A model generated the notes under the pieces. It saw only the letters and a program-made list of their open reading frames with translations, was not told the DNA's origin and ran no database searches. From positions 1 through 30,373 of IMG/VR virus record IMGVR_UViG_3300042923_000170: a stretch of DNA of 30,373 nt; one strand, given 5' to 3'. The first letter of the stretch is position 1; each line of letters begins with the position of its first letter. Below are positions 3,157 through 17,444 of this stretch, piece by piece. The position numbers were made by a program, and so were the translations under genes. Origin of the DNA: a virus. Lineage: Duplodnaviria; Caudoviricetes.

Positions 3157-3274
3157 GGAATTATGCCGGGAATTTGGACGAATGTCGAAGAGTCGGAAGT
3201 CTATGGTCTACTACGTTAATAAATACAAATTATTAGTAAGAAAAGAGAGGGCTTCTACGGCCTCGCAAGCTTAG
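3137..3274 (+). CDS. 45 aa hypothetical basic protein
   Basis: GAGGGAG RBS; MLRLWDKELCREFGRMSK...ASQA; stop lies inside repeat copy A. Confidence 0.45.
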   Translation: MLRLWDKELCREFGRMSKSRKSMVYYVNKYKLLVRKERASTASQA

Positions 3275-3295
3275 CGTATTCGGTCGAGACGATGC
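3256..3295 (-). repeat. Dispersed junction element copy A (inverted orientation)
   Basis: Reverse complement gCATCG-tct-CGACCGAAT-acgctaagcttgcg-AGGCCGTA. Confidence 0.85.
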
Positions 3296-3322
3296 AAATC
3301 TAATTCAAAGGAGAGATAAAGA

Positions 3323-3562
3323 ATGCAAAAAATGTGGGAAATCATTAAAGCGATCGAGGATGTAGGAATTAAGGTAAATCGAGCATATTGGTCGGATGAT
3401 GAAAACTTGGAAGTTGATGTTGACCCTAGTTGCGAAGATCAGGCCGCCGATGCAGTTAAAGCAATGTGGCATAACATCCAAGGGGAAAGGTTGGACTCTC
3501 TTGGATTAATTGAACAAGAAATCGAACCGACCGAACAATCACAACCCCAATCAGATCAATAA
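3323..3562 (+). CDS. Hypothetical acidic protein bracketed by inverted junction elements
   Basis: AAAGGAGA RBS, 79 aa. Confidence 0.75.
   Translation: MQKMWEIIKAIEDVGIKVNRAYWSDDENLEVDVDPSCEDQAADAVKAMWHNIQGERLDSLGLIEQEIEPTEQSQPQSDQ
3521..3536 (+). repeat. Dispersed junction element copy B (core only)
   Basis: ATCG-aac-CGACCGAAC; no downstream ARGCCG. Confidence 0.6.
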
Positions 3563-3575
3563 GGAGATGAGAGAT

Positions 3576-3974
3576 ATGTTAACGGAAATTCGCAAAGCAC
3601 TTGATAATGCTTCAACACAGCACGAATGGGATACAGATGGAACTTTCATTGAATGGAAAGATGGTCATCCGTTGCGTGGGACACACAGAAGGATCGCGAT
3701 TACGGATGCGCGTGTTGCTGAATCTTTCAAAAATGAGAACCGTGAAAACGATGCTCACTTGATTGTAAATACCCCTAAATATCTTGAGTGGTGCTTATCA
3801 GAGATAACCGCACTCCAACAACAGAATAAACAACTGATAGAGGCGTTGGTAATTGTCAGAGATACGCTAGCGTGTAAAAAACACGACGATCGCACTTCTC
3901 ATGGACTATGGCAAGTAGCTGATAAAGCAATCCAAGGAGGCACACCAGATGGAACAAGTAACAATAATGCCTGA
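3576..3974 (+). CDS. Ead/Ea22-like hypothetical phage protein
   Basis: AAGGAG RBS; ASTQHEW...DAHLIVNTPKYLEWCLSEITAL pattern. Confidence 0.65.
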   Translation: MLTEIRKALDNASTQHEWDTDGTFIEWKDGHPLRGTHRRIAITDARVAESFKNENRENDAHLIVNTPKYLEWCLSEITALQQQNKQLIEALVIVRDTLACKKHDDRTSHGLWQVADKAIQGGTPDGTSNNNA

Positions 3975-4110
3975 TAACCCACGAATGAGCTTACGTGAGC
4001 ACAAGGAACTCATCAATCAGGTACTTGGACATGAAAAAGGAATCTGCGCTAACAGATCCCCAAGAAACGATATGATACCTAATTTCAGTATAAACGATTT
4101 GCCGTGGTAA
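3949..4110 (+). CDS. 53 aa hypothetical protein ending NDLPW
   Basis: AAGGAGG RBS; below ORF-track cutoff. Confidence 0.6.
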   Translation: MEQVTIMPDNPRMSLREHKELINQVLGHEKGICANRSPRNDMIPNFSINDLPW

Positions 4111-4367
4111 GTGAATCGAAAGTCCGGCATGTGCTGAAACACCACAACGGACGCTATCTCTCATGGGATTCGAAGAACTTTCCACTTACTCACCTGATCA
4201 GCGAGGCTAGGCAATTCTACCAACCTGAACAGATCCCGGAATTCTTACTTAATAGCTATTACAGACCTGAAATATACGATTTAGATTCATCGGATTTCGA
4301 AGTTGTAGAGGTTGAAATTTCATATAGGGAGTTGGAGTCAAATGAACCTATATCAGAAGATCGTTGA
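4104..4367 (+). CDS. Hypothetical protein
   Basis: Overlap-coupled 87 aa ORF. Confidence 0.6.
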   Translation: MVSESKVRHVLKHHNGRYLSWDSKNFPLTHLISEARQFYQPEQIPEFLLNSYYRPEIYDLDSSDFEVVEVEISYRELESNEPISEDR

Positions 4368-5088
4368 GGTTCGAAAGGTCGCCGAAGGATTCACGAAAGA
4401 CGGAGCCAGCTACAGTTACACCTACGTTACTGGTAACCAAGTACTCGGAAAGATCAAAGACAAGATGAACGAATTGAACTTACTTTTATTCCCTTCAACC
4501 AAGATCGGAGAGCATCACACGCATGCATATAAAACAGCTAAAGGTAAAGACGTTCTGGATTTTGTGGTCAAAGGTGAAATGTCCTACACATGGATTAACG
4601 GGGATGAACCTTCGGAAAGGGAGGTTGTCTCATGGGCTTATTACGGTCAACAGGACGACATATCGAAGGCATTTGGTTCTGCTTTAACGTATTCGGAAAG
4701 GTACTTCCTCTTGAAATGCTTGGGACTTCCTACGGATGAAGATGATCCGGACGCTAAACAAGATAAACCGCAGCACAATTCACAACAGTCCCAAACGCCT
4801 CCTAAGGCGACACAACAACCATCCCAGACAAATACACAATCTAGTCAATACAACGCTTCCCAGAGCCAACAGGGAGCCGTGGTCATGGTAAGCGAGGGAC
4901 AGATTAAGTTTATCGGTTCCTTGAAGACGCAGAAGAAGGTTCCGGATGACGATTACCGCCAAATGATTGCACCTAAGACAAGCACCAAAGACCTCACAAT
5001 GGCAGAAGCCAAGAAGCTTATAAATACCTTGCAAGACTATACCCCACAACCAGTCACAACGATCGCTGACGACGATCTCCCATTCTGA
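4342..5088 (+). CDS. ERF-family single-strand annealing recombinase
   Basis: MNLYQKIVEVRK...KAFGSALTYSERYFLLKCLGLPTDEDDPD ERF signature; Q/S linker; C-terminal DDDLPF. Confidence 0.9.
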   Translation: MNLYQKIVEVRKVAEGFTKDGASYSYTYVTGNQVLGKIKDKMNELNLLLFPSTKIGEHHTHAYKTAKGKDVLDFVVKGEMSYTWINGDEPSEREVVSWAYYGQQDDISKAFGSALTYSERYFLLKCLGLPTDEDDPDAKQDKPQHNSQQSQTPPKATQQPSQTNTQSSQYNASQSQQGAVVMVSEGQIKFIGSLKTQKKVPDDDYRQMIAPKTSTKDLTMAEAKKLINTLQDYTPQPVTTIADDDLPF

Positions 5089-5426
5089 TGATCGACTATA
5101 CCAAAAGCCCGGGCGTAGCCGTGCAAAAGCCAGCTTTTAAGCGCTCTAACAAACCCACACAGAAGCAGATGGGAAGCATCAGTCAGAAAGTACGCAAGCA
5201 AGTCCGCGAGAGAAGTCAGGGGATCTGTGAGATCAGAGTAAAGTGTCACGGCTCCCCTGCCGTTGAGCAAGCACATTTAACCACTAGAGGGACTATCAAA
5301 CATAGGACTACCGCAGAAGACCTTCTCCACTCTTGCGTAACTTGTCACATTTGGATGGATCGAACGGTGGATGGCATTAGGTTCAAGAAAAAAAGAGTCG
5401 AGGAGTTGTCTAGTCGTGCAATGTAG
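5088..5426 (+). CDS. Small HNH-like Zn-binding nuclease
   Basis: VRERSQGICEIRVKC...QAHL...LLHSCVTCHIW. Confidence 0.7.
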   Translation: MIDYTKSPGVAVQKPAFKRSNKPTQKQMGSISQKVRKQVRERSQGICEIRVKCHGSPAVEQAHLTTRGTIKHRTTAEDLLHSCVTCHIWMDRTVDGIRFKKKRVEELSSRAM

Positions 5427-5967
5427 CGTATTTAACTGCGATAGCCAGGTTCATAAAAGAAAAACCGTTTGCGAGAAGCACTACATGAGATTTCGTAGAA
5501 ACGGCAACTACTACACGAAGAAGACTACGACTAGGCCAATTAATTTTAATGTTGATGATAATGGTTGTTTTGTTGTCATTTCGCACGCACCGTATTCATC
5601 TGGATACGTGATGATCGGAAGTCGTGGGGGGAGAACGGCCGCTCACCGACTGATATACGAGGAATGTTTTGGTGAAATACCAGATGGACTTGTTGTTAGG
5701 CATAAATGTGATGTAAGAAATTGTATAAATCCGGAGCATTTAGAACTAGGCACACAGCGCGACAATGTATTGGATGCAGTAAAAAGAAACAGGTTGCTGC
5801 AAGGCGAACGTCATGGTTGGAGCAAGATTAACGAAAACACAGTGAGAAATATCAAGTTAATGGTGGCAGAAGGCAAAAGAAATATTGAAATAGCCGCAGA
5901 GTTAAATCTGCACAAGAGCACAGTCTGTAACGTTAAACGTGGCGCGACTTGGAAGCATGTTAACTAA
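5416..5967 (+). CDS. HNH homing endonuclease (N-terminal Zn finger, C-terminal HTH)
   Basis: AHRLIYE...VVRHKCDVRNCINPEHLELGTQRDN; GTG start 5416 after AGGAG. Confidence 0.9.
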   Translation: MQCSVFNCDSQVHKRKTVCEKHYMRFRRNGNYYTKKTTTRPINFNVDDNGCFVVISHAPYSSGYVMIGSRGGRTAAHRLIYEECFGEIPDGLVVRHKCDVRNCINPEHLELGTQRDNVLDAVKRNRLLQGERHGWSKINENTVRNIKLMVAEGKRNIEIAAELNLHKSTVCNVKRGATWKHVN

Positions 5968-6057
5968 GTAAGGCTTGTCACATCTATCTGGATACGACTG
6001 GTGAAGGTGTACGATTTAAAAAATCATTGCGCGAGGGCGCATAGGGAGAGATTAAAA

Positions 6058-6552
6058 ATGAATTTACTAAAAATTGAAAACGAATTGATTCAACTTAACG
6101 AAACTCGTAAAGAAGCCATTAAAGCGCATGAGGATTTCATGAAACAAAACACAAAAGAGATAGCGGAATTGAGTCGCAAGAAAGGTATGGCAATGAAAGG
6201 TATCGACTTAGGGATGATCAGGCAAGCAGAGGCATTGGTCTATATTCGCGGTTTGGAGTATGGGGAATATAACGGTCGATGCATTGATGAAGCAATTAAA
6301 GACATCGCCTTGGATACGCCGAAATTGTCACAACAATATTTTGGAGTGAAAAACTATGATCGGTGGAGCCATCAAGAATGTGATTGCAGTTACGGAATGG
6401 GGCCTTCACACGGTTCGATAGTATTTGCGGTAGGTCTGAGAAATCCTAGCAAAAAGTTATCAGAGGGGCAAAAGGAAAGTTGCTTATATTACCTCACCCT
6501 ACTTAAAGACAAGGAAATGCGCGAATCAATGGTCATTAAAAAAGCGAACTAA
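6058..6552 (+). CDS. Hypothetical phage protein
   Basis: GGGAGAG RBS; N-terminal coiled coil; YGMGPSHGSIVF motif. Confidence 0.8.
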   Translation: MNLLKIENELIQLNETRKEAIKAHEDFMKQNTKEIAELSRKKGMAMKGIDLGMIRQAEALVYIRGLEYGEYNGRCIDEAIKDIALDTPKLSQQYFGVKNYDRWSHQECDCSYGMGPSHGSIVFAVGLRNPSKKLSEGQKESCLYYLTLLKDKEMRESMVIKKAN

Positions 6553-6558
6553 GATTTT

Positions 6559-6608
6559 GCGCATAGCGCCCTCGTCCCGACCGAATCCGCTTAACAAAGT
6601 GTAGGCCG
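6559..6608 (+). repeat. Dispersed junction element copy C
   Basis: GCGC-ATA-GCGC-CCTCG-tcc-CGACCGAAT-ccgcttaacaaagtgt-AGGCCG. Confidence 0.85.
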
Positions 6609-6636
6609 ATAAATAGCCCCTAAGGAGACTAATAAG

Positions 6637-7176
6637 ATGTCAGATAAACGATTGATAGATGGAGCAACAGTCCATTATTTGAAATGTTGGCCGGAATACT
6701 TCCAAGCAGTTAAGTCGGGAGCGAAGCCGTTCGAGATCCGTGAAAATGATCGAGATTACAAAGTCGGTGATGTATTGATCCTCAAGGAATGGCACATGGG
6801 GATGCAAAAGTATACGGGCGACGAGGAAGAGCGAACTATTTCTTACATGACAACCTATAACCAGAAGTCAGGGTATGTTGTTCTCGGACTCTCCAATCAG
6901 GGAGAAGCAGCAAGACAGCGGGATGTTCTGGAACGAATTGAAGGTCTTGAACTAAACGATAGCGACACGTACAAGACTCTGGTTAAACACATCGTCAAGC
7001 AAGCCCTCTCCTTCCATACAGAGGATACAGGGATACAGAAGGTACGGGAGTTGTGGGACGAAATGAAGCGGCAAGATGGCTTCTACGGTATGCGAGCGCT
7101 AAAAGGATCGTTGATAGCCCTCGGCATCACCATTCCAGGCATTACAGATGGAGGGGATAACAATGCGGAGACTTAA
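6637..7176 (+). CDS. ASCH/DUF3850-domain protein
   Basis: HYLKCWPEYFQAVKSGAKPFEIRENDRDYKVGDVLILKEW. Confidence 0.9.
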   Translation: MSDKRLIDGATVHYLKCWPEYFQAVKSGAKPFEIRENDRDYKVGDVLILKEWHMGMQKYTGDEEERTISYMTTYNQKSGYVVLGLSNQGEAARQRDVLERIEGLELNDSDTYKTLVKHIVKQALSFHTEDTGIQKVRELWDEMKRQDGFYGMRALKGSLIALGITIPGITDGGDNNAET

Positions 7177-7444
7177 ATTCGAAATGTGGAAACATCGCGA
7201 TGGCGGCGTAATGACCCGGTTCACGGACGGAAGAGGAATCTATACCGATTCTTGGTGGAGCAGCCCTCCGTCATCGATTAACCACGTCGGACCGGAATAT
7301 CTGCTTAATCGTCATCCGAACGTGCGCAACGATCGACACGTGGATTTCATCAAACGCTGCTTCAAGGAAGAAGTAGTCAATTTCAAGGAGCAGACAAGCG
7401 AGGGTTATAGTCGGCTTAAGTCTGCGGGAGGTCCCATCAGATGA
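7163..7444 (+). CDS. Hypothetical protein
   Basis: GGAGGGG RBS before ATG 7163. Confidence 0.7.
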   Translation: MRRLKFEMWKHRDGGVMTRFTDGRGIYTDSWWSSPPSSINHVGPEYLLNRHPNVRNDRHVDFIKRCFKEEVVNFKEQTSEGYSRLKSAGGPIR

Positions 7445-8118
7445 GTGATACCCAACATAAAGGAGCAATAGCAAGAGTATCGTTACCAGGTATGAGGGAG
7501 TTGATAAACGTCATGACGCAACCTAAAGAGCAGTTGATAGATATTGCCGAGATAGAGAAGGCGTTGGAAGCAGTTACGCCGGGAGAGTGGGAGGTAGTAG
7601 ATCTCGATCCCGTTCAAATTGCCATAGGCTACAAGTTCCAAGACGGAATTCATACAGCAAAATGGATAGCTGAAATCGATAGCGACCAGGACAACGGGCA
7701 TCAACACGCAGACGCATGGCTTATCGCCAACGCTCCCAAATGGCTCCGCGCCCTACTGGAAGAGAACAAACGGTTGAAAAGAGATAAAGCAGAAACAATG
7801 CGTCTTGTCATACAGCGAGACAAGGAACATGCGATCCAACTCCAACAGACAAGGGAAGAACTGGAACGATACCAGGGCATGTATCAGCGCACAGAGGATC
7901 AACTAGGTAGCGAGATAAAAACGTCCGCATACCTCCGTACTGAACTATCCGCAAAGGATAAGGTGCTGGAATGGTACGGAAACAAATCGAATTGGGAACC
8001 ATGGGGTCCGGATCGCAATGTATGGATGGACAAGGACAAAGGAGAACAAGCCCGTACCATCCTCCAGCAATACACCAATAGGACGGATAAAGGAGAGGGT
8101 ACCGATGCTCCAAAATAA
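7441..8118 (+). CDS. Ead/Ea22-like coiled-coil phage protein
   Basis: ALEAVTPGEW...DAWLIANAPKWLRALLEENKRL; similar to 3576-3974. Confidence 0.7.
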   Translation: MSDTQHKGAIARVSLPGMRELINVMTQPKEQLIDIAEIEKALEAVTPGEWEVVDLDPVQIAIGYKFQDGIHTAKWIAEIDSDQDNGHQHADAWLIANAPKWLRALLEENKRLKRDKAETMRLVIQRDKEHAIQLQQTREELERYQGMYQRTEDQLGSEIKTSAYLRTELSAKDKVLEWYGNKSNWEPWGPDRNVWMDKDKGEQARTILQQYTNRTDKGEGTDAPK

Positions 8119-8212
8119 CGCAGTATACGGATTCGCCTTCTCTCTATCCATCTACTTAATCTTATATCTAGCTTATGAGGGATTAGTAGAGATAGTGAGG
8201 TGGGTGGGATGA
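8105..8212 (+). CDS. 35 aa membrane peptide
   Basis: GGAGAGG RBS; hydrophobic AVYGFAFSLSIYLILYLAY. Confidence 0.6.
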   Translation: MLQNNAVYGFAFSLSIYLILYLAYEGLVEIVRWVG

Positions 8213-8331
8213 AAGAGATAAACGAGACCGGAGAAATTCAATACTATAGGCCAAGAAAGAAACTATGGATAGCATTTCTACTCTTGGATGCTGCGCTCAT
8301 CGCCTTGATCGTTTCAATGATTAAAAACTAG
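8209..8331 (+). CDS. 40 aa membrane peptide
   Basis: GAGGTG RBS, ATGA coupling; KKLWIAFLLLDAALIALIVSMIKN. Confidence 0.6.
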   Translation: MKEINETGEIQYYRPRKKLWIAFLLLDAALIALIVSMIKN

Positions 8332-8339
8332 TCGGACAT

Positions 8340-8368
8340 AAAAAAGAGAGGGTTCATTTGCCCTCTCT
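8340..8368 (-). terminator. Rho-independent terminator of the RHH gene (possibly bidirectional)
   Basis: AGAGAGGG/CCCTCTCT stem preceded by an A6 tract (U-tract on minus strand). Confidence 0.7.
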
Positions 8369-8500
8369 CATCTTCACTAAAAATTCCCGGTTGATTATAT
8401 GCGATACGTTGGTTCTCTCATTATCTGCAAGTTTTTGAATGAATTCCAGTACGTCTTTATCAATACTGACTGACGTTTTAACCTTCTCTACCTTCTCCAA
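8354..8500 (-). CDS. Ribbon-helix-helix (CopG/Arc-like) DNA-binding protein, 48 aa
   Basis: GAGGTGA RBS, TTG start; MEKVEKVKTSVSIDKDVLEFIQKLADNERTNVSHIINREFLVKMREGK. Absent from ORF track. Confidence 0.8.
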   Translation of the reverse strand: MEKVEKVKTSVSIDKDVLEFIQKLADNERTNVSHIINREFLVKMREGK

Positions 8501-8518
8501 ATCGGCTCACCTCAAGCG

Positions 8519-8815: not shown

Positions 8816-9619
8816 ATGTCCGAGAGAAAACCAATATCTAAGAAAGTTCGTTTTGAAGTGTTCAAGCGAGATTCATTCAAGTGTCAGTATTGCGGTAAGT
8901 CAGCGCCTGACGTAATTCTCAACGTCGATCACATTAAGCCCGTAGCTGCCGGAGGAAACAACGGCATGACCAACCTGTTAACCTCGTGCTTCGACTGTAA
9001 TTCAGGTAAGAAAGCTACCTTGCTGGATGACAATACGATGATGGAGAAACAAAAGAAGCAGTTGCAGGAGTTAAACGAAAAGAGATTACAGCTAGAAATG
9101 ATGATGCAATGGCGCGAAGGATTAATGTCGATCGAAGAAGACAAGCTAAATTTCGCATTGAAAAAGTGGTCAGACGTTTTGAACGATACTTATTCTCTAA
9201 ACGAGAACGGTAAGAAGGGAATGCGAAAGTTATTAAAAAAACACGGACTAAACAGTGTTTTGGATGCAATAGAAACGTCGGCCAGTCAGTATCTAAAATT
9301 CAAAGATGATAAGCCGATTCAATCATCAGTTGAAGAAGCTTGGAAGAAAGTAGAACGAATTCTATCTTTCAACCAGGCTGCCGAAAAAAAACCATACTTA
9401 AAAGATTTGTATTATCTACGGGGAATACTCAAAAACAGATTGCATTATGTAAATCCTCACATTGCAATCTCTTTATACGAAAAAGCGTACTTGCTTGGCG
9501 CATCAAAAGATAGTTTAACGTCATTCTCTAAAAGCGTTAAAAATTGGACTGATTTTCAGTTCGAAATGGAAAGATTCATTAATGATCACGAAGGTAAGGG
9601 TGATTCAGATGAGTCGTAA
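8816..9619 (+). CDS. HNH endonuclease with long helical C-terminal region
   Basis: RFEVFKRDSFKCQYCG...VDHIKPVAAGGNNGMTNLLTSCFDCNSGK. Confidence 0.9.
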   Translation: MSERKPISKKVRFEVFKRDSFKCQYCGKSAPDVILNVDHIKPVAAGGNNGMTNLLTSCFDCNSGKKATLLDDNTMMEKQKKQLQELNEKRLQLEMMMQWREGLMSIEEDKLNFALKKWSDVLNDTYSLNENGKKGMRKLLKKHGLNSVLDAIETSASQYLKFKDDKPIQSSVEEAWKKVERILSFNQAAEKKPYLKDLYYLRGILKNRLHYVNPHIAISLYEKAYLLGASKDSLTSFSKSVKNWTDFQFEMERFINDHEGKGDSDES

Positions 9620-10442
9620 ACGTTACATCAGTACTGATATTAGTACTGACATTAAACTCGCTGAACTATCGGAGCACGGAATTCTCCCTTTGCTCCTTTA
9701 CACATGGTCAATACCACACATGGATGATTGGGGTCGAATGACAGGTGACGCAAGGCAATTCAAATTACTTGTGTGTCCAGCATTGGATGTGTCGAGTAAG
9801 GATGTTGACGAAGCGATTAATCAAGTAGCTGCCGTAGGTCTATGGATTAGATATGAGGTTGATGGTAAAGGCGTTGTATCCATTCCTGAAGATAGTTGGT
9901 TTAAGCATCAATCGTACATTAACAAAGCGAAACGCGGTGATGATAGTGGTTCCAACTACCCAAAAACGCCGAAGAACGCCGAAGAACGCCGAGAATCACC
10001 GCAAAACCCCGTTTCTTTTTCTCTTTCTTCTTCTGTTTCTTCTTCTGTTTCTGTTTCAAGTGATACTACTGCTCCTGCGCCTAACCCGTTCAAACTTTTC
10101 GAATCTGAGGGATTCGGAATGCTGACGGAAATATTGGGTCAGAAGATCGGAGACATGATTGACGACTTCGGAGAACCTTGGGTGCGAGAAGCAATGAAGG
10201 AAGCATCTTATTACGGAAAGCGGAATCTTCCATACGTTAAAAGCATTTTGAATCGCTATAGAACAAGCGGAATAGACGAACCTTGGAAACAAGAAAAGGC
10301 AGGTGAACAAAATGGGGGAACTAAAGAATCCCTTCGACAAGGAGAAAGCGCTGGAGATGATAAACAAACTCCGGGCGGCAAGTCAGGAGTTCTCCCAAGC
10401 AAATACATTCACCTCCTCAAAGACGACTCACAAGTGTCCTAA
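9609..10442 (+). CDS. Phage replication initiator with C-terminal DnaD domain
   Basis: NPFKLFESEGFG...WVREAMKEA...RNLPYVKSILNRY DnaD-like domain; precedes DnaC; contains internal iterons. Confidence 0.85.
   Translation: MSRKRYISTDISTDIKLAELSEHGILPLLLYTWSIPHMDDWGRMTGDARQFKLLVCPALDVSSKDVDEAINQVAAVGLWIRYEVDGKGVVSIPEDSWFKHQSYINKAKRGDDSGSNYPKTPKNAEERRESPQNPVSFSLSSSVSSSVSVSSDTTAPAPNPFKLFESEGFGMLTEILGQKIGDMIDDFGEPWVREAMKEASYYGKRNLPYVKSILNRYRTSGIDEPWKQEKAGEQNGGTKESLRQGESAGDDKQTPGGKSGVLPSKYIHLLKDDSQVS
9965..10057 (+). repeat. Putative replication origin: 10 bp iterons plus pyrimidine tract
   Basis: AACGCCGAAG x2 then AACGCCGAGA in tandem, followed by TTTCTTCTTCTG repeats, inside the initiator gene as in lambdoid origins. 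Confidence 0.65.
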
Positions 10443-11160
10443 ATGCAAGGACGAAGAAGGTTATATCGTAAAAGTCCCGGATATCATCGTTCGCAACGGC
10501 GAAACATTGGAGATCATGCGAGACGCTTGGAAGTTCTGCGAATGCAAAGAGGAAAGAAGCATCGAGCGGACATTTAAGACAAGCAAGATCACGTTAGAGT
10601 TCCAAAAGAAGAATTTCGACGCATTCAGCCTAGAGAATCGACCTGCAAGCATCCGACAGGCATACCAGATGGCGCGGATATACGCCAACGGGTTCGACAA
10701 GATAAGAGAAACACGTTCAAACAGCATTTGTATGCTCGGAAATGTCGGAAGTGGAAAGACTCATCTCCTCGCTGCGGTCGCTAATGACCTAATGAGTCTG
10801 AACATCAAGGTGCTGTACTTCCCATGGGTCGAGGGATTCAACGAGATTAAAGACGACTTATCCCTAACGGAAGAACGGATAAACCGAATGCAGAAGGTTG
10901 ACTTACTTTTCATCGACGACATGTGGAAAGGCAGAAAGGAACCGACTCCATTCCAGATCGAACAAGCCTTTGCGGTGATCAACTATCGGTACATGGAAAA
11001 GCTACCTGTCCTGATATCGAGCGAACGGGACATAGACCAAATGTGCGACATTGACGAAGCCATTGGGAGCCGCATAAACGAGATGTGCAAGGACTTCCGC
11101 ATCATCCTGAAAGGCGGCAGGGAAATGAACTACAGGCTCAGAGAGGACGAAGGAGCATGA
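10312..11160 (+). CDS. DnaC/IstB-like AAA+ helicase loader
   Basis: CPKC...CEC Zn site; GNVGSGKT Walker A; LLFIDD Walker B; IGSRI. Confidence 0.92.
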   Translation: MGELKNPFDKEKALEMINKLRAASQEFSQANTFTSSKTTHKCPKCKDEEGYIVKVPDIIVRNGETLEIMRDAWKFCECKEERSIERTFKTSKITLEFQKKNFDAFSLENRPASIRQAYQMARIYANGFDKIRETRSNSICMLGNVGSGKTHLLAAVANDLMSLNIKVLYFPWVEGFNEIKDDLSLTEERINRMQKVDLLFIDDMWKGRKEPTPFQIEQAFAVINYRYMEKLPVLISSERDIDQMCDIDEAIGSRINEMCKDFRIILKGGREMNYRLREDEGA

Positions 11161-11323: not shown

Positions 11324-11596
11324 ATGAGGACACTATACAAGAAATTCAAAGAGATAACCGGAATTCGTGGTGCAGACTTGGCAGAAGTTAATAACTTTAC
11401 ACGGCAGTATATAAGCCTTATTGCAAACAATCCAAACAAAATGAATGTCATAAGATTAGCAACCATGATGAAAGATGCAATAAGACATGAGATAGAAAAA
11501 GAAGAAGAAGCGCACGAACTGAAAATGAGATCACTTCGACAATTGCGCAATGAAATCGATGTGAAGTTACTCATGGAAGATGAGGTGTCAGCATGA
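11324..11596 (+). CDS. Putative HTH DNA-binding protein
   Basis: GIRGADLAEVNNFTRQYISL HTH-like segment; GGAGG RBS. Confidence 0.65.
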   Translation: MRTLYKKFKEITGIRGADLAEVNNFTRQYISLIANNPNKMNVIRLATMMKDAIRHEIEKEEEAHELKMRSLRQLRNEIDVKLLMEDEVSA

Positions 11597-11709
11597 GACA
11601 ACCGCAACCCGACGACGATTACACATTAGCAGATCGAGACTTTGATGAATTCATAAGGCGTGGCTTGGACGAGTTGGAATGGGAGCGTAAGCAGAGAGCG
11701 GAGGAATAG
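11593..11709 (+). CDS. 38 aa hypothetical protein (paralog 1)
   Basis: GAGGTG RBS; MRQPQPDDDYTLADRDFDEFIRRGLDELEWERKQRAEE. Confidence 0.65.
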   Translation: MRQPQPDDDYTLADRDFDEFIRRGLDELEWERKQRAEE

Positions 11710-11711: not shown

Positions 11712-11855
11712 TTGTACGAATGTTGGGAGTGCAAAGAAAACGATGTGCCAGATGATAACGTGCAAATGTGTTGTGACGGATATATGTGCGGGTGCATGGG
11801 TAAACCCGTTGAGCCTCCAATATGTGATGAATGTCTTGAGAAATTAAGCGTGTAA
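11712..11855 (+). CDS. 47 aa Cys-rich protein
   Basis: GGAGG RBS, TTG start; MYECWECK...MCCDGYMCGCMGKPVEPPICDECL (8 Cys). Confidence 0.65.
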   Translation: MYECWECKENDVPDDNVQMCCDGYMCGCMGKPVEPPICDECLEKLSV

Positions 11856-11898
11856 CGCCATCGAATCGACCGCAATACACAGCGAAGCGGAAGCCGTA
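11848..11898 (+). repeat. Dispersed junction element copy D
   Basis: GCGT-GTA-ACGC-CATCG-aat-CGACCGCAAT-acacagcgaagcgg-AAGCCGTA. Confidence 0.85.
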
Positions 11899-11904: not shown

Positions 11905-11994
11905 TTGAATTATTTAGCAGATAGGGACTTCGAAGAGTTTATAAGGATCGGACAAGCTGAATTGGAGTGGGAGAGAAAGCAACGGGAGGAATAG
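11905..11994 (+). pseudogene. Truncated paralog 2 of the 38 aa ORF
   Basis: LNYLADRDFEEFIRIGQAELEWERKQREE; weak RBS; begins just after element D. Confidence 0.5.
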
Positions 11995-11997: not shown

Positions 11998-12087
11998 ATG
12001 GATAGCGAAGTTTCCTTGGTTGTGATAGTCATACAGAATTTTATCATCATCCTATTTCTATCTATGATTCATTCAAAAAGAGGTTAA
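11998..12087 (+). CDS. 29 aa hydrophobic peptide
   Basis: GGAGG RBS; MDSEVSLVVIVIQNFIIILFLSMIHSKRG. Confidence 0.55.
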   Translation: MDSEVSLVVIVIQNFIIILFLSMIHSKRG

Positions 12088-12115
12088 CGAAAATACCAAA
12101 GTGAGGGGTAAGGGA

Positions 12116-12640
12116 ATGACGCTACTAGCAAACAAAACGAATTTCAACCAAGGCGTATTTTTCAGCATCGAGAACACGACAGAAGTGTGGGAAACGCCGC
12201 AGGACTTCTACGATAACTTAGATAAATTATTCCACTTCACTCTGGATGTATGTGCGGATCCGACGAATGCAAAAGCAGAAACATTCTTCACGAAAGAAGA
12301 AGACGGTCTATCGCAAAAATGGACTCGTAACGTTTGGATGAATCCTCCTTATGGTCGCGTGATAGGAAAGTGGATCCGCAAGGCATACGAGGAAACGCAA
12401 AACGGAAATGTAGATGTCGCGGTGTGCTTAGTCCCATCCCGCACTTGTTCGGCTTGGTGGCATGACTACTGCATGAAAGGCGAAGTTTGGTTCATACGCC
12501 ATCGTTTGCGGTTCGGTGGATCCAAGATAAACGCACCATTTCCAAACGCTGTCGTCATATTTCGCAAAGGCGAGATTAAACATTCGTTCACCACGATAGA
12601 CCGTCATGGAAATTTTGTGCTAAAGGGTGAATCTGCGTGA
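12116..12640 (+). CDS. Phage DNA N6-adenine methyltransferase (Dam-like)
   Basis: WETPQ, FTLDVCA, EDGLSQKW, VWMNPPY, RLRFG and APFP motifs. Confidence 0.92.
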   Translation: MTLLANKTNFNQGVFFSIENTTEVWETPQDFYDNLDKLFHFTLDVCADPTNAKAETFFTKEEDGLSQKWTRNVWMNPPYGRVIGKWIRKAYEETQNGNVDVAVCLVPSRTCSAWWHDYCMKGEVWFIRHRLRFGGSKINAPFPNAVVIFRKGEIKHSFTTIDRHGNFVLKGESA

Positions 12641-12864
12641 ACGATAGGAACTGTAGGACATGCATCTGGCATCATTCGGAAAACAAAACATGGTGTAACA
12701 ACTGTCAGCTTAATAATTTTATACCACAATGGCCTCATGCAGATAACTTTGATTTCTGGCAAGAGAATAAAGAATTTGCGCGTAGCGCCATCGAAACGAC
12801 CGAACAAGCCCAAGCCGAAGGAGGATCTAATGCAAATACTAACAGTAAGCCCCATAACCAATGA
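12637..12864 (+). CDS. Hypothetical Cys-containing protein
   Basis: CRTC...CNNC; GTGA coupling; 3' end reads through element E. Confidence 0.55.
   Translation: MNDRNCRTCIWHHSENKTWCNNCQLNNFIPQWPHADNFDFWQENKEFARSAIETTEQAQAEGGSNANTNSKPHNQ
12778..12817 (+). repeat. Dispersed junction element copy E
   Basis: GCGC-GTA-GCGC-CATCG-aaa-CGACCGAAC-aagccc-AAGCCG, directly before the AAGGAGG RBS. Confidence 0.85.
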
Positions 12865-13030
12865 AATAAACCTAGCAACAGTAAACAGACGTAACCCAAG
12901 AGTACTAAACGACAAGAAAACAATCATGACCAATCAAGCCATAAACGCAGTCATACAGCACATAAAGGGACAAGGTAATCACATTGAAACAGAGTTTGGG
13001 AAGCTAATATGGGAGCCGAGGGAGGGGTAA
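12830..13030 (+). CDS. Hypothetical protein
   Basis: AAGGAGG RBS before ATG 12830. Confidence 0.7.
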   Translation: MQILTVSPITNEINLATVNRRNPRVLNDKKTIMTNQAINAVIQHIKGQGNHIETEFGKLIWEPREG

Positions 13031-13033
13031 GAG

Positions 13034-13738
13034 GTGAAAATACTAGATTTATTCTGCAAGGCGGGGGGGTGTTCGATGGGATATCACCGCGCAGGGTTCG
13101 AAGTGGTAGGCGTGGATATTGAACCGCAGCCGAATTACCCGTTTAAGTTCATTCAGGCAGACGCCGTTGAGTTCTTGAGAACCGGATCAATGATGATCGC
13201 CACAAACTTTGACGCTATTCACGCTAGTCCACCATGCCAAAGAAACAGCAAGTTGCAAAGTTTAGGCATGGCTAGAAACGGAAGTTACAAGGCAAAGGAA
13301 CATCCGGATTTGATTGATCCGATCAGAAAGTTACTCGTTGAAATGAATACCTGGCACTACATGCCGTATGTGATTGAAAACGTAGAAGGTGCAGAATTAA
13401 TCGATCCCATCAAGTTATGCGGCTTGAACTTCGGACTCAAGGTATACCGGCACAGACTTTTCGAAAGCAATGCGTATCTCATGCAACCGGAACACATCCC
13501 TCACGATGATCAAACGCCGAGCGCCGGGAACGGGATAAGCCCAAAAGGATTCATAAGCGTTTGCGGAACGGGCGGTGTAAAGGGAATGAAGGCGAAGGAG
13601 ATCGTGGACTACTGGAGCATGGCAATGGGCATTGATTGGATGAACCGGGCAGAGCTAGCGCAGGCCATACCGCCAGCATTTACGGAATTCATCGGACAGC
13701 AGCTGATGGAACAACTGAAAGTAAAGGTTTCGGCATGA
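13034..13738 (+). CDS. DNA cytosine-C5 methyltransferase (short phage type)
   Basis: Motif I LDLFCKAGG, motif IV SPPCQ, motif VI IENV, RHRLF, C-terminal AQAIPP. Confidence 0.88.
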   Translation: MKILDLFCKAGGCSMGYHRAGFEVVGVDIEPQPNYPFKFIQADAVEFLRTGSMMIATNFDAIHASPPCQRNSKLQSLGMARNGSYKAKEHPDLIDPIRKLLVEMNTWHYMPYVIENVEGAELIDPIKLCGLNFGLKVYRHRLFESNAYLMQPEHIPHDDQTPSAGNGISPKGFISVCGTGGVKGMKAKEIVDYWSMAMGIDWMNRAELAQAIPPAFTEFIGQQLMEQLKVKVSA

Positions 13739-13754
13739 AAAAGGCGGGAAAATT

Positions 13755-13943
13755 GTGCAAGGGTACATCGGAAAATACTATACAGTTTGGTGCGGACGTT
13801 GTACCAGGTGGGACGATGTCCCTGCAGATAGAAGACCCGAAAAGATTGCTCGTAAGATGGGGTGGAAGTCATCTAAAGAATACGGATGGTTGTGTCCTAA
13901 TTGTGTAAACGGAAATACAAACGAATGGGAACTAAGAACTTAA
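13755..13943 (+). CDS. Small Zn-ribbon protein
   Basis: CGRC...CPNC; ends just before element F. Confidence 0.65.
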   Translation: MQGYIGKYYTVWCGRCTRWDDVPADRRPEKIARKMGWKSSKEYGWLCPNCVNGNTNEWELRT

Positions 13944-13949
13944 CGCACT

Positions 13950-13990
13950 GCATCGACCCGACCGCAATACTCAGCGCAGCGGAGGCCGTA
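13950..13990 (+). repeat. Dispersed junction element copy F
   Basis: gCATCG-acc-CGACCGCAAT-actcagcgcagcgg-AGGCCGTA. Confidence 0.85.
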
Positions 13991-14016
13991 AATATGATCC
14001 CAAAGGAGATAAAACA

Positions 14017-14364
14017 ATGTTAAAGCGAGAAGATATCCTATCCATGGTGCCGGGAAGAGAGTTAGACGCGCTAGTCGCTGAAAAGGTGATGGGATGGAAA
14101 TATAAACGAATGACCGGCTATAAAGAGGATGCGTTCGAATCAAGTGATTTAAAACTAGTATTCGTTAGTGATTGGACACCGTCCTCCTACATACACTTGG
14201 CCTGGAAAGTGTTTGAAAAGGGAGATTTCGATAAAGAAAAATCAAGCATCGTTCATGGAAGCATGGGCCAATGGACTTGTCACTTCGACGATGTATCGTC
14301 CAACGCTTGCTCAACGGCTCCACTCGCGATTTGCAGAGCCGCACTACTGGCGGTGATGGAATGA
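14017..14364 (+). CDS. Phage ABA-sandwich-domain-like protein
   Basis: GRELDALVAEKVMGW...AWKVFEK...APLAICRAALLA. Confidence 0.75.
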   Translation: MLKREDILSMVPGRELDALVAEKVMGWKYKRMTGYKEDAFESSDLKLVFVSDWTPSSYIHLAWKVFEKGDFDKEKSSIVHGSMGQWTCHFDDVSSNACSTAPLAICRAALLAVME

Positions 14365-14492
14365 AACTCTCCAAATACAGCAAACCAGTACCCAACAGAA
14401 AGATATTCCACGAGCCCGCCAATAGTCCCGTAACCTCATATCGCATGACGAAAGATGAAATGGATAAACACCTGAAAGGGGCAGGAGGGTGA
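14361..14492 (+). CDS. 43 aa hypothetical protein
   Basis: ATGA coupling. Confidence 0.5.
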   Translation: MKLSKYSKPVPNRKIFHEPANSPVTSYRMTKDEMDKHLKGAGG

Positions 14493-14656
14493 CAGCAAAG
14501 TGGAACATAAGAATCGGTAACCACATGTACAAGCGCAATATATCCCTAAACTACGCCTATGAGATAGCAGAACAGTTACAGGATGAAGTATTAGGGATAC
14601 AAATCCATCAAAGCATTGAAGCCAGAGAGGCGCGAAGGAGTGTTGAGGCGGGATGA
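14489..14656 (+). CDS. 55 aa hypothetical protein
   Basis: GTGA and ATGA coupling on both sides; fills the gap to recU. Confidence 0.5.
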   Translation: MTAKWNIRIGNHMYKRNISLNYAYEIAEQLQDEVLGIQIHQSIEAREARRSVEAG

Positions 14657-15246
14657 AAGTTACCGAAGAGGAATTTGCAAAGATAACCAATACACCAAAG
14701 CCGAAGAAGCCGAGAAAAGGGAACCAAGCCAACAAGGGAATGGGTTTAGAAAAACTTATCATAACAGCGTGTGAACAATACGAATCAAAGGGAATAGCCA
14801 ACATTAAGAAAGTATCAACGCCATGGACAGTTATTCGCAAAGGGCCGAGAATCGTTAACGCTTTTCCATCCGGTCAAAGCACGGTCGATTTCATGGGTGA
14901 ATACAAAGGACAAGCGATCTGCTTTGAAGCTAAGAAAACAGAGAATAAAACATCATTCCCTTTATCGAACTTCGAGGATCATCAAATTGAGTTTATGCGG
15001 AACTGGAAAGGAATCAAGTTTGCAATCATCGAGTTTGAAACACACAAGAAAGTTTACTTCCTACCCTTCAAACAACTTATAACCGCTTGGGATAACTCGA
15101 AGGACGGAGAAAGAAAGAGTATTCCTTATCAATGGTTCATCGATTGGGGAGAAGAGATCGAACAGGGTAACGGAGTGATGTTGGACTTTGTGTACTGGGT
15201 AGATCAGTACATCGATACGAACATGATAAGGGAGTTGAGTGCATGA
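14653..15246 (+). CDS. recU: Holliday junction resolvase RecU
   Basis: ANKGMGLE...KVSTP...STVDFMG...ICFEAKKT...FPLSNFEDHQ...RKSIPY. Confidence 0.92.
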   Translation: MKVTEEEFAKITNTPKPKKPRKGNQANKGMGLEKLIITACEQYESKGIANIKKVSTPWTVIRKGPRIVNAFPSGQSTVDFMGEYKGQAICFEAKKTENKTSFPLSNFEDHQIEFMRNWKGIKFAIIEFETHKKVYFLPFKQLITAWDNSKDGERKSIPYQWFIDWGEEIEQGNGVMLDFVYWVDQYIDTNMIRELSA

Positions 15247-15395
15247 GCGACAAAGAGAGCCTAATCGACGAAAGAACACGGTTAACCGAGCGATTGAAAC
15301 TGATCAACGTAAACTCGCCGGGCAGAGATCGAATCATCGAACGAATCGAGGCAATCGATCAGGAATTGGACAAGGTTAAAAATCAAGCTGTTTGA
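15243..15395 (+). CDS. 50 aa hypothetical protein
   Basis: ATGA coupling, GGGAG RBS. Confidence 0.6.
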   Translation: MSDKESLIDERTRLTERLKLINVNSPGRDRIIERIEAIDQELDKVKNQAV

Positions 15396-15492
15396 GCGTA
15401 ATTTGTGCCTCTCTAGTAGAATGTTCCAATCACTAGGCTAAAGAGGCTCAGAAGGGCGTACAGAGCGTTACAACACTATTAGGAGGGTTACC

Positions 15493-15942
15493 ATGAGTAG
15501 GGAGATTAAGTTTAGAGCGTGGAGTAAGTTTCGTGAAGAAATGGTAGACGTAAGAGGGCTTGCTATTTCTGATCTAGGAGAACAGTTCGACTTGGTAGAT
15601 GATAGCACACTTGGACAACTGGCTTCGCATGACTGGAACGATTTAGATAATTACGTTCTAATGCAATACACCGGACTAAAAGATAAGAACGGTAAGGAGA
15701 TTTGGGAAAAAGACAGATTCAAACACGGGAAAGCAGTGGGCACGATTGAATACAACGAAGATAGGTTTGAAATTGTTTGGGACAAGCCAGATGTTGAGTT
15801 TTTCAATGAAATTCTAAGGTTCCATGTAGGAAAAGGAGAGGTCATAGGCAACATATACGAGGAGGTGAGTAAGGATGAAGATACCACCAGTAGGGAAAGT
15901 AGTCCCGATGAAGCCGAAGACAAAACGTCCGCAGCCGAGTGA
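15493..15942 (+). CDS. YopX-family protein
   Basis: REIKFRAW...LMQYTGLKDKNGKEIWE...EVIGNIYE. Confidence 0.92.
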   Translation: MSREIKFRAWSKFREEMVDVRGLAISDLGEQFDLVDDSTLGQLASHDWNDLDNYVLMQYTGLKDKNGKEIWEKDRFKHGKAVGTIEYNEDRFEIVWDKPDVEFFNEILRFHVGKGEVIGNIYEEVSKDEDTTSRESSPDEAEDKTSAAE

Positions 15943-15979
15943 TTTCAAGCCTTGGAAACCGCCCGATGGCGCGGCATAA
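15875..15979 (+). CDS. 34 aa Pro/Lys-rich micro-ORF
   Basis: GGAGGTGA RBS; MKIPPVGKVVPMKPKTKRPQPSDFKPWKPPDGAA. Confidence 0.5.
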   Translation: MKIPPVGKVVPMKPKTKRPQPSDFKPWKPPDGAA

Positions 15980-16003
15980 AAACGCAATATATAGCGAATA
16001 ACC

Positions 16004-16032
16004 TTTTAAAATATCACAATATGTGGTATAAT
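16004..16032 (+). promoter_or_regulatory. sigmaA promoter with extended -10
   Basis: TGTGGTATAAT (16022-16032) in an AT-rich gap; imperfect palindrome ATATCACA-ATA-TGTGGTAT overlaps it. Confidence 0.7.
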
Positions 16033-16090
16033 ATCAATAGAAATTTGAATATTCGGAATGTTGAAATAATAACCCTTGGGAGCGTGCAGA

Positions 16091-17155
16091 ATGAGCAAAT
16101 TATTGATGTATGAGGCTGAATTACAGGACGTAAAAAACGAAATGGATCAGCTTACGCAATCAGGCGTTGGCAAAGAGGACGAGCGTTACAAAGCGAAGGA
16201 GACACGCGAGGCCGAGTTATTGCAGTTGGTGATGGAGGAAGAACAGCTACTGACAAAAACGCAAGGGATCATAGCGAACGCACAGGATCCTGATTCATCG
16301 TTTGGAATTTCCGTTCAGGGCATGACGGTTAATTTCCGGGAAGTGACCGACAAGGAAGAATCCTATCAGGCGTTGGCTATTGCATACCAACTCAAACTCC
16401 AAGAGATCGAGGATACTAACCAAGCCGAAGTGAAGGCGATTCAATCAAGCTTTAACGCTGAACTGGCGCAACGTGATCAAGTCGAGCAATCGTTACGAGA
16501 AAACCTCCATCAAACCGGATTAGAGCGCGATGACTTTGAATCCAAGTGGTTAGCGGCGACGAGCGATCGGAATGAACTTCTAGCAGATAACACTTTGCTG
16601 TCCGGCGAGAACGCATCACTTAAAGCTCAGGTTGAAGAGCTGCGCAACCAAGTAAGCAAGCCGACTACGACGACTAACCTCGATAACGGCGCATTAGCAC
16701 AAGCGATGGAACGTCTGAAAGCTTCCCGTCCGGCCATTTACAACGTGGTTGAAGTAAGCGGCACGAAGTCCACGGCGGTACTGGTAGACACCAACGAAAC
16801 TATCGAGTTTCACCCGAACTACATTGGCAAATATCGCGTAGTGAGCTACGAAGATGCAATGCAGATCCGCAACGAGATTGATCAAGCCAAGCAAGATGAT
16901 GCATCACTCGTACCGGATTCAGAATCCGTTGAGGCGGTAGAGGAATTTCGTCCAGAATCCGGAGTACCGATTCCCGACCTACAGAATGTGGACTCAGGAC
17001 ACATCGTGGATGAATACTCCACTACGGGACAAGATGGACAGGATGTTGCAGGTGGGGTTGTTACAAGGGAAGAATTCGAAGCTCTGAAAAAAGATGTTGA
17101 GAAGCTTAAATATCATGTTGGATTCGGTGAAATCAATCAAGGGGCGGCGGCTTAA
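16091..17155 (+). CDS. Acidic coiled-coil hypothetical protein
   Basis: 354 aa E/Q/L-rich ORF downstream of its own promoter. Confidence 0.8.
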   Translation: MSKLLMYEAELQDVKNEMDQLTQSGVGKEDERYKAKETREAELLQLVMEEEQLLTKTQGIIANAQDPDSSFGISVQGMTVNFREVTDKEESYQALAIAYQLKLQEIEDTNQAEVKAIQSSFNAELAQRDQVEQSLRENLHQTGLERDDFESKWLAATSDRNELLADNTLLSGENASLKAQVEELRNQVSKPTTTTNLDNGALAQAMERLKASRPAIYNVVEVSGTKSTAVLVDTNETIEFHPNYIGKYRVVSYEDAMQIRNEIDQAKQDDASLVPDSESVEAVEEFRPESGVPIPDLQNVDSGHIVDEYSTTGQDGQDVAGGVVTREEFEALKKDVEKLKYHVGFGEINQGAAA

Positions 17156-17400
17156 TGGCTAAGTACCGCAAGAAGCCTGTAGAGGTCGAAGCGTGGCAGA
17201 ACTCAGACGATAACGGATGTCCTGAGTGGTTGGACAATGTGGATGTCGGCAGAGATCACGGCGGAGTTATTCTAATATCCACGCTAGAAGGTGTCATGCG
17301 GGCAGAAGCAGGGGATTGGATTATACGAGGGATTAAAGGCGAATGTTACCCTTGCAAGCCGGACATCTTCGAAGCCACGTATGAGGCAGTAAGCGCGTAG
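17155..17400 (+). CDS. Conserved phage hypothetical protein (PGDYG-like)
   Basis: KYRKKPVEVEAWQ...TLEGVMRAEAGDWIIRGIKGECYPCKPDIFEATYE. Confidence 0.85.
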   Translation: MAKYRKKPVEVEAWQNSDDNGCPEWLDNVDVGRDHGGVILISTLEGVMRAEAGDWIIRGIKGECYPCKPDIFEATYEAVSA

Positions 17401-17444
17401 CGCCATCGTCACGACCGAATAATCCCAACAAAGTGAAGGCCGTA
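17393..17444 (+). repeat. Dispersed junction element copy G
   Basis: GCGC-GTA-GCGC-CATCG-tca-CGACCGAAT-aatcccaacaaagtga-AGGCCGTA; overlaps the TAG stop. Confidence 0.85.

Follow-up and report, generated by a model that had tools for sequence, protein, structure and literature searches.

The structured element that recurs at gene junctions in this DNA is found as a dispersed repeat in temperate phages of the Paenibacillaceae. We collected 426 copies from (pro)phage regions of this family (1-15 per phage), and they bear out the earlier note's view of a family that sits at the gene junctions of accessory regions. The element is about 50 nucleotides in length and begins with a hairpin P1 that some copies lack, followed by a TCG/CGA stem closing a 7-nucleotide loop, a C-YYA motif, an optional mini-hairpin P3 and a GG-N-RGCCG tail. 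Compensatory changes together with DNA-type loops confined to the motif strand point to a predicted fold of single-stranded DNA (ssDNA), and we assign a probability of roughly 40% to the reading that it acts like a single-strand initiation (ssi) or primosome-assembly signal, which would turn single-stranded recombination intermediates into duplex.

It has long been asked how temperate phages exchange single unrelated genes with precision at gene boundaries. A short cis element with a predicted fold, hundreds of natural variants and a non-random geometry around the swapped genes makes this question directly testable. If the element is of the ssi or pas (primosome assembly site) type, it would provide an extensive alignment with covariation for a class of DNA signal of which a handful of examples are known, as well as a compact priming signal for Gram-positive vectors.

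Copies in the window and in other phages

Within the window, the whole stretch of 30,373 nucleotides that was analysed, the core TCGNNNCGACCG occurs exactly seven times (3281-3292 on the minus strand, and 3522, 6572, 11861, 12791, 13953 and 17406) versus 0.23 expected, and none of 100 shuffles reached seven, in agreement with the seven copies that had been claimed. With one mismatch allowed, the count is still 7 against 4.9 expected, so the core by itself is significant only as an exact match. Re-inspection upheld the different 3-nucleotide spacer in each copy and the loop subfamilies C/G and D/F, and RGCCG was found in six of the seven copies, as expected from the statement that six continue to a tail. 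By contrast, the region between core and tail, described earlier as a plain loop, is made up of C-YYA, the optional mini-hairpin and GG-N. The six full copies score 28-56 bits (E 1e-6 to 6e-15) with a covariance model whose training set included their relatives, while the best match in the structural module reaches a non-significant 6.8 bits, consistent with the reported lack of a full copy there.

Copy A (3258..3296, minus strand; 28.2 bits) is of the antisense type, with the spacer TCT, a P3 with a TT loop and no P1 hairpin; its 5' flank looks like the one found in antisense copies with a P1, except that the hairpin is deleted, and on its P1 side lies an A-rich leader with an RBS (3297..3322, plus strand) of a kind common among antisense copies. 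It forms the left, tail-outward member of a pair with copy B (3521..3536, plus strand), which has decayed to the core (10.3 bits, E 0.26). The pair brackets a 79-aa gene (3323..3562, plus strand) without PHROG or Pfam match and of no known family, whose reading frame runs through copy B, placing that copy inside the gene end. The other five copies and their genes are on the plus strand, all five copies being sense. Copy C (6559..6608; 53 bits) comprises P1 (6559-6569), core (6572-6585), P3 (6594-6600) and a tail ending at 6608, with the upstream stop codon at 6550-6552 and the next start at 6637. Copy D (11848..11896; 55.9 bits), with GCGAAGC as its P3 mini-hairpin, is attached to a 47-aa gene (11712..11855), and gene and copy together are flanked by a diverged 77-bp direct repeat (11626-11702 and 11914-11990; 70%). 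Copy E (12778..12817; 32.5 bits) is a short form without P3, and its tail runs into the RBS of a gene starting at 12830. Copy F (13944..13988; 42.3 bits) has no full P1 and GCGCAGC as P3; the upstream stop is at 13941-13943 and the next start at 14017. Copy G (17393..17442; 54.9 bits) precedes a start at 17489, and the stop codons upstream of D and G both fall within the first hairpin.

Strong matches are concentrated in phage-like regions and are not scattered over chromosomes, and none of 102 copies lies in structural blocks (378 kb). The Rfam comparison proposed as a check in the earlier note gave no match to any family, neither in the window at gathering score nor on the elements of four loci at E values up to 5. 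No description of the element was found in the literature within search reach, which did not extend to subscription journals and bioRxiv supplements, and BLAST of element copies against INPHARED and PLSDB returned short chance-level matches only. A covariance-model search of 151 genomes, confined to Bacilli with other phyla left out, gave weak matches (27 bits or less) in 11 genomes besides the seed genome, and these were without the element architecture on inspection. The first loose pattern used on viral contigs produced mostly GC-rich chance matches, from which 7 of 120 loci were carried on by eye; for a second set of 66 loci, only low-GC loci with the full architecture were kept. The ERF family is present in 29 of 72 regions. 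A query with RecU returned only the same phage, and an alignment of a 354-aa protein was dropped because it was too divergent and included three unrelated proteins.

Predicted single-stranded fold

The hairpin between TCG and the first CGA that had been drawn earlier was rejected, with 0 compensatory changes and 7 copies unpaired; TCG pairs with the second CGA of the core instead. In the 102-copy alignment, the covariation score was 0.18 as compared with 0.109 for shuffled alignments (0 of 500 shuffles as high), with a change from G-C to A-T in the core stem of 7 copies and a first P3 pair that is GC in 83 copies and AT in 19. Core pair G2-C10 is GC in 208, AT in 12 and GA in 8 of 231 copies, and GC in 167, AT in 19 and GA in 7 of 195 in an independent set. 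A pseudoknot proposed between the CG of the core and the CG of the tail has invariant partners and hence no covariation support, and folding of single sequences as DNA or RNA was uninformative (z near 0).

Among 366 long copies, the P3 loops are GNA (242), GNYA (60), GNRA (12), ANA/ANC (19), TT (16) and other (17), with no reverse-complement loop classes, counts that are partly circular given that, for each locus, three seed patterns required one copy to have a GNA/GNNA hairpin. The P1 loops, which were unconstrained by any search pattern, are GNA in 137 and GNYA in 39 of 287 cases. These DNA-type mini-hairpin loops are always on the motif strand, whichever way the copy is oriented. C-YYA precedes P3 in 332 of the 366 long copies, with TTA or CTA as the triplet in just 170, and many of the 51 short forms are without YYA. 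According to one report (PMC13037366), mini-hairpins of the GNA/GNNA type have a much higher stability in DNA than in RNA, withstand nucleases and are bound only poorly by SSB; the report also places them at priming sites in G4, St-1 and RSF1010 ssiA.

Orientation, pairing and gene exchange

Relative to transcription, 318 copies are sense and 108 antisense. Sense copies directly follow stop codons, whereas antisense copies directly precede RBS leaders. On the folding strand, a copy is typically located 3' of a gene. Copies lie just before an RBS in 209 of 318 sense and 79 of 108 antisense cases (for the latter the RBS is in the 5' flank), a TATAAG-like flank follows the tail on its 3' side, and the genes that neighbour elements are unrelated to each other. 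Antisense-then-sense pairs, with tails pointing outward, bracket one or two swappable genes. Along the transcript, 63 neighbour pairs were in antisense-then-sense order and only 2 in antisense-antisense order, for which permutations gave a mean of 8.1 and 5 of 2000 were as low; a replicate gave 28 and 1 (mean 4.7; 24 of 2000 as low). The same bias was obtained without ORF calls for neighbours at most 1.3 kb apart, with tail-out versus tail-in counts of 51 versus 15 and 25 versus 8.

The earlier note's notion of exchangeable gene cassettes agrees with what relatives show, in that the element moves together with genes, and the cargo enclosed by bracketing pairs is exchanged. Its notion of a site-specific crossover at the NNN spacer does not, since only 12 of 112 homology starts lie in the zone of P1 arm, TCG and spacer. 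The 112 breakpoints are spread over seven zones with no fixed point, and 64 lie 3' of the tail, indicating that a copy remains linked to the gene next to its P1. In 25 pairs with only the 3' flank in common, the tail octamer is common to 17 and P3 to 3 of 19, and spacer, linker and P3 are exchanged in patches between otherwise identical copies. Paired copies have the same spacer in 4 of 51 cases versus 2.2 expected; spacer identity or complementarity between paired copies was rejected, as was a fixed target duplication. At a filled site (G361), the cassette ends 7 and 10 nucleotides outside the tails and lies between 15-bp direct repeats that are single-copy at the empty site (G001), and a similar 23-bp repeat was seen at L209. 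Element-specific flanking repeats were nevertheless unsupported, and three antisense matches turned out to be masking artefacts.

In the window itself, a relative's sequence joins at 6603 in copy C, relatives join at 13941 and 13978 around copy F and at 17392 and 17426 around copy G, and a relative of copy E carries another element variant up to 12809. Logan contigs from two runs, one of which may be the source of the window and from which no breakpoint rate was drawn, have joints or loose ends at 3257, 6603, 12809, 12819, 13941, 13978, 17392 and 17426 among the matches listed, where many other joints are located within genes or on start codons. Junctions without an element show gene swaps and leader duplications too (insertions with leader duplication at 23 of 602 such junctions versus 9 of 161 sense copies). 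Therefore, the element is not required for mosaicism.

Candidate functions

In the ssi-like reading, Erf/RecT-type recombination would expose a foreign gene as ssDNA, and the Erf-type single-strand annealing protein encoded at 4342..5088 (plus strand; phrog_155) is a candidate handler of such intermediates. The folded element would resist SSB and load the host PriA/DnaD/DnaB/DnaI proteins, or DnaG directly at YYA. With synthesis proceeding toward P1, the attached gene on the 5' side of the element would be copied, and two copies in inverted arrangement would serve whichever strand is exposed. Fixation in recombinant genomes would then be more frequent for genes with the signal, and this would maintain selection on the structure of each copy.

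The phiX174 n'-pas, ColE1/pBR322 ssiA/ssiB and pAMbeta1 ssiA are likewise short structured ssDNA signals of mobile replicons, and the phage element, by its predicted fold, has their strand specificity. GACYRA followed directly by a mini-hairpin, a pattern fitted after inspection of these three records, occurs once each in ColE1 (1328), phiX174 (2352) and pAMbeta1 (2863) against 0.03-0.05 expected per record, at what we take to be their primosome assembly sites; F plasmid 30-70 kb has no such match. The phage element differs from known pas in its RGCCG tail and in the 8-10 nucleotides between core and hairpin, where the fitted pattern has 0. ColE1 1322-1340 also contains a TCG-NN-CGACCGA core and is the only covariance-model match in the three records (5.7 bits, E 6.2), in which the whole-element HMM found nothing significant. 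By position weight matrix, the top ColE1 site was at 1502 on the minus strand (11.8 bits; null 99th percentile 12.0), and it was not significant with the tail included. Whereas pas sites number one or two per replicon, on the lagging-strand template near the origin, the phage copies are many, located at gene junctions and in both orientations.

Primase-only ssi (G4/St-1/alpha3 origins, RSF1010 ssiA/ssiB), compared here by architecture, also combine several small GNA/GNNA hairpins, a YYA triplet beside a hairpin and pairs on opposite strands, although the triplet of the element is not invariant. The St-1 and RSF1010 mini-hairpins named in PMC13037366 occur among its P1/P3 variants, and primases of Bacilli start at 5'-CTA/TTA (PMC5204125). 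No RepB'-like primase was seen among the proteins scanned. Against an ssi-like role, D-loops are recognised by PriA even where there is no pas (PMC5703833, PMC8246471), swaps take place at element-free junctions, and no switch of orientation was found at the replication genes or the origin.

A more specific form of the ssi-like reading, tentative and rather doubtful, is a gene-capture device without an enzyme of its own, in which inverted loading signals for the host primosome or primase would clamp a gene and have the exposed strand copied at once. If true, bracketed genes would be transmitted preferentially and mosaicism in the phage population would rise, and a replication signal would have taken on a new role as a cassette end, which would set it apart from integrons, transposons and REPINs.

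Somewhat unlikely, in our estimate, is a role in which a nicking or strand-transfer enzyme uses the folded ssDNA as its substrate (as with attC, REP/RAYT or NTS/Ssn) and nicks near the outward tails would release or insert the gene. Structure conserved over divergent sequence, and location at gene 3' ends, are as in integron attC; tail-outward pairs place each element at a 3' end like transposon ends, and the G361/G001 and L209 repeats and the retained tail octamer would fit. However, the breakpoint is not fixed, and flanking repeats are about equally common without elements. The boxes of attC are RYYYAAC ... GTTRRRY. Given that the linker of the element resembles the first in 59 of 366 long copies but paired boxes occur in just 2, the analogy with attC drawn in the earlier note fails, as it does for the mixed orientation with inverted pairs. 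REP/REPIN-RAYT and NTS-SsnA are, like the element, oriented ssDNA hairpin repeats with inverted doublets around genes (PMC11893778); they are single chromosomal hairpins, often numbering in the hundreds and associated with a RAYT or GIY-YIG gene, while the phage element has several stems, an architecture different from NTS, and resides in phage regions. The Y1 HUH transposase (PF01797) was present in 0 of 17 phage records, and the Pfam scan, which took in 170 of 3864 called proteins, returned no HUH, GIY-YIG, reverse transcriptase or transposase family and no dedicated recombinase. The integrases among the proteins scanned are ordinary phage enzymes, serine in some phages and arm-type tyrosine in others, with none in common. 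A host enzyme or a small early HNH protein is a candidate for nicking, and a nuclease or recombinase substrate would imply a new ssDNA enzyme still to be found.

We consider it unlikely that the element is a nuclease-resistant, SSB-excluding handle for Erf/RecT annealing, which would offer 60-100 bp of common homology and stop resection at gene ends in a Chi-like geometry without priming. Lambdoid boundary or linker sequences are short junction homologies where modules exchange; such homologies are abundant in element-carrying phages, but lambdoid ones conserve sequence rather than covarying structure and keep one orientation. The resistance of mini-hairpins noted above, the outward-facing position of each copy on the 3'-ended strand, breakpoints across and beside the element, patchwise exchange and the frequent Erf or RecT genes of these phages all favour a handle. 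By contrast, simple resistance needs no near-invariant core loop, C-YYA or tail, and many copies do without P1 or without P3.

A regulatory site seems improbable, be it an operator, an RNA for antitermination or processing, or an N4-like hairpin promoter that works on supercoiled DNA. It would account for the copies before RBSs and the TATAAG-like flank, and N4 promoters use GGA/GAA triloops (PMC13037366). The cis-acting mRNA motif suggested earlier is unlikely because the 108 antisense copies among the 426 have their loops on the motif strand just as the sense copies do. The excess of GNYA over GNRA loops, RNA folding of the window copies no better than shuffles (z -1.6 to 1.4), the empty Rfam search, the unrelated neighbouring genes and the lack of a virion-type RNA polymerase among the proteins scanned also argue against regulation. 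Finally, a MITE/REPIN-like miniature repeat, either selfish or passive, that is tolerated nowhere but between non-essential genes would explain multiple copies in both orientations, inverted doublets, absence from structural blocks and two opposite copies in one prophage with 33 bp in common, but it is the least probable reading, given that neither a mobilising enzyme, in the records and proteins scanned, nor a constant target duplication was found, strong matches concentrate in phage-like regions, and copies in the same genome differ in sequence yet keep their stems.

Fold, strand and distribution of the element

The element represents a genuine family of structured DNA that seems not to have been described before and is linked to exchangeable phage genes. 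Seven exact matches to its core were found in the window against 0.23 expected, bearing out the seven TCG-NNN-CGACCG cores of an earlier note, although only six of these belong to full copies and copy B (3521..3536) is a decayed core. No further significant copies were detected in the window by HMM or covariance model, and the Rfam search suggested in that note returned no match to the element. In the available portions of the literature searched, including PMC11893778, PMC4129139, PMC3167613, PMC5778457, 10.1101/2022.12.05.519187, PMC5204125 and PMC8246471, no description of it was found; as far as the accessible text goes, 10.64898/2026.09.22.753630 describes other elements, and the account of Brevibacillus phages (PMC4909266) has a promoter-like motif with its letters given in a figure.

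The architecture reads 5'-[P1 hairpin]-CA/CT-XCG-N(2-5)-CGAC-CGA-A-N(2-4)-C-YYA-[P3 hairpin-GG-N]-RGCCG-WATAAGG-like flank. A P3 stem of at least 2 bp was present in 94/98 long copies, compared with 8.3 after shuffling. In the core stem, CG is paired to the second of the two CG steps, with G2 to A accompanied by C10 to T (12 and 19 copies in two sets), whereas the hairpin pairing originally proposed had zero compensatory cases. Loops are GNA, GNNA (mostly GNYA), ANA/ANC or TT, with P3 loop counts partly circular owing to the seed patterns and P1 loop counts free of that; reverse complements of these classes were absent from sense and antisense copies alike. ANA/ANC and TT loops are stable in DNA. 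GNA/GNNA mini-hairpins are far more stable in the DNA than in the RNA form, according to the available part of PMC13037366. Because DNA-type loops lie on one strand in both orientations, we infer that the working form would be the single motif strand of DNA.

The strict pattern matched 34 loci among 185,579 GTDB genomes (33 in named Paenibacillaceae and one in a 'Bacilli' MAG), as well as roughly 150 stretches of viral and 140 of metagenome DNA. With the covariance model (E below 1e-4), matches occurred in 19/151 Paenibacillaceae genomes, a count that includes single-copy matches inspected only in part; most matches were grouped in stretches of some 15 kb. Among 151 Bacilli genomes, strong matches were confined to the seed genome. 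We infer the host family from the named genomes that carry the element. The main set (231 copies, 69 regions) was drawn from 255 HMM hits by removing two duplicate prophages, hits that could not be parsed and scores under 13 bits (the top score on reversed sequence was 12.3 bits); the independent set comprised 195 copies in 103 clusters, 21/159 loci having been removed as already represented. Regions held 1 to 15 copies. Structural gene blocks (378 kb) contained 0/102 copies, 7/231 lay deep within a long ORF as defined by a simple in-house caller, and a few occurred among accessory genes between lysis and integrase.

Gene geometry and exchange

A stop codon lies within 9 nt of P1 in 159/239 sense copies and an RBS beyond the tail in 209/318, and the next gene's RBS is on the P1 side in 79/108 antisense copies; therefore, the usual place of the element, read along the strand that folds, is 3' of a gene. 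After an antisense copy the next one is almost invariably sense, at a median spacing of about 490 bp in the main and 440 bp in the independent set, with antisense-antisense neighbours numbering 2 and 1, below permutation. The A/B pair (A, 3258..3296, minus strand), which encloses a 79-aa gene, conforms to this pattern. At many sense copies (e.g. position 26001 of the element-bearing region G418), the upstream ORF often reads through the core and stops at a YTAR motif, adding an IDPTESA-like peptide to unrelated proteins.

Between regions compared (G412a/G412b and G388/G259a/G259b), outer flanks were kept while cargo or element interior differed. A cassette in G361 is flanked by 15-bp repeats that occur singly in G001, and a single sense copy, together with the leader downstream of it, was found behind at least four distinct upstream sequences, the shared stretch beginning at the P1 base. 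The 112 distinct homology starts, which are BLAST ends blurred by similarity among copies, fell 3' of the tail (64), at or in P1 (18), from P1 arm to spacer (12), in the core (5), linker/P3 (3) or tail (7), or further upstream (3). The cassette-shuffling idea is partly borne out, for exchangeable genes but not for an attC-like crossover at NNN. Element-free junctions commonly carry identical 25-55-base segments and RBS-leader duplications, and joints in relatives' contigs occur not only at elements but also at start codons, which counts against a dedicated system. A categorically new gene-capture device is rather unlikely.

Three pairs of phages with unrelated genes (G361 and G001, G348 and G413, G388 and G259b) share many perfectly identical 25-55 bp junction segments (stop, RBS, start), and genes are swapped exactly between these, also without the element. 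Direct RBS-leader repeats of 14-23 bp surround genes at 23/602 element-free junctions (72 prophage regions), suggesting a general insertion route that would duplicate the leader. In the ABA-sandwich (14017-14364) and YopX (15493-15942) genes, relatives' joints are intragenic, with conserved ends and swapped middles.

Possible likeness to priming sites and candidate roles

ColE1, phiX174 and pAMbeta1, picked for comparison, have one GACYRA each, directly followed by a mini-hairpin of P3 type. In phiX174 this site falls in the gap separating genes F and G, and in ColE1 and pAMbeta1, on the usual placing of origin and pas, downstream of the origin. In ColE1 it also shows a TCG-NN-CGACCGA core. 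A separate ColE1 site, at 1502 on the minus strand, has core, linker, P3 and GG at the spacing of the phage element, near the bom/transfer origin and ssiB; a run of GNA/GNNA mini-hairpins lies within 1460-1560 on that strand. PMC5703833 gives the origin motif of pAMbeta1. Because whole-element models gave non-significant results for all of these likenesses, they represent a lead rather than membership, and ssi/pas-like kinship is proposed provisionally.

The data show a structure signal, strand specificity, geometry and co-segregation with genes. The reading we favor, at a probability of roughly 40%, is priming on single-stranded DNA: Erf/RecT recombination would expose single strands, PriA or DnaG would recognise the exposed element, synthesis would run in the direction of P1 and so through the gene attached there, and genes so copied would gain an advantage in recombinants. 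That the element is instead a nuclease or recombinase substrate is rather unlikely; Pfam scans of 170/3864 called proteins found Erf or RecT, HNH, RusA, methylases and both integrase types and no shared site-specific enzyme, and 17 records contained no Y1 transposase, so that the element is probably read by a protein of the host or by a small protein lacking annotation. A protective annealing handle is somewhat less likely again, a regulatory role is improbable, and a passive repeat is the least probable account.

A small early HNH-like protein (5088-5426), adjoining Erf/RecT in many of these phages and in 5 cases encoded immediately before an antisense element, is a candidate nickase. The HNH gene at 5416-5967 is probably a mobile homing endonuclease, since relatives in sequencing run X2 are without it (joints 5278-5987 and 5320-5991).

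Phage setting

The window holds a partial temperate phage with Cro-like regulator, antirepressor, methylases, RecU, ArpU-like regulator, terminase, portal and capsid, together with Erf (4342-5088) and DnaD/DnaC-like replication genes (9609-11160). Short tandem AAGAACGCCG-type repeats within the DnaD-like initiator gene (9960-10000) are likely an origin iteron array. A 50-kb record of the same phage (G416) contains a tyrosine integrase and has the same tail genes, some 3 kb, at either end (1-3980, 46892-50028), consistent with circular-assembly overlap.

A 354-aa acidic coiled-coil protein (16091-17155) without PHROG or Pfam match directly precedes the ArpU-like regulator, and its family is present in 24/72 regions. 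The gene before copy G (17393..17442), at 17155-17400, is phrog_419 with N-terminus MAKYRKKP, and may be Tad2-like; in the element-bearing region G417, the gene preceding one sense element matches Pfam Tad2-like anti-Thoeris, positions 1664-2122 of record L327 belonging to the same observation. Finally, a 47-aa gene plus copy D (11848..11896) is enclosed by a 38-aa gene (11593-11709) on one side and, on the other, by a diverged duplicate of the 3' part of that 38-aa gene (11905-11994; 77 bp, 70%).
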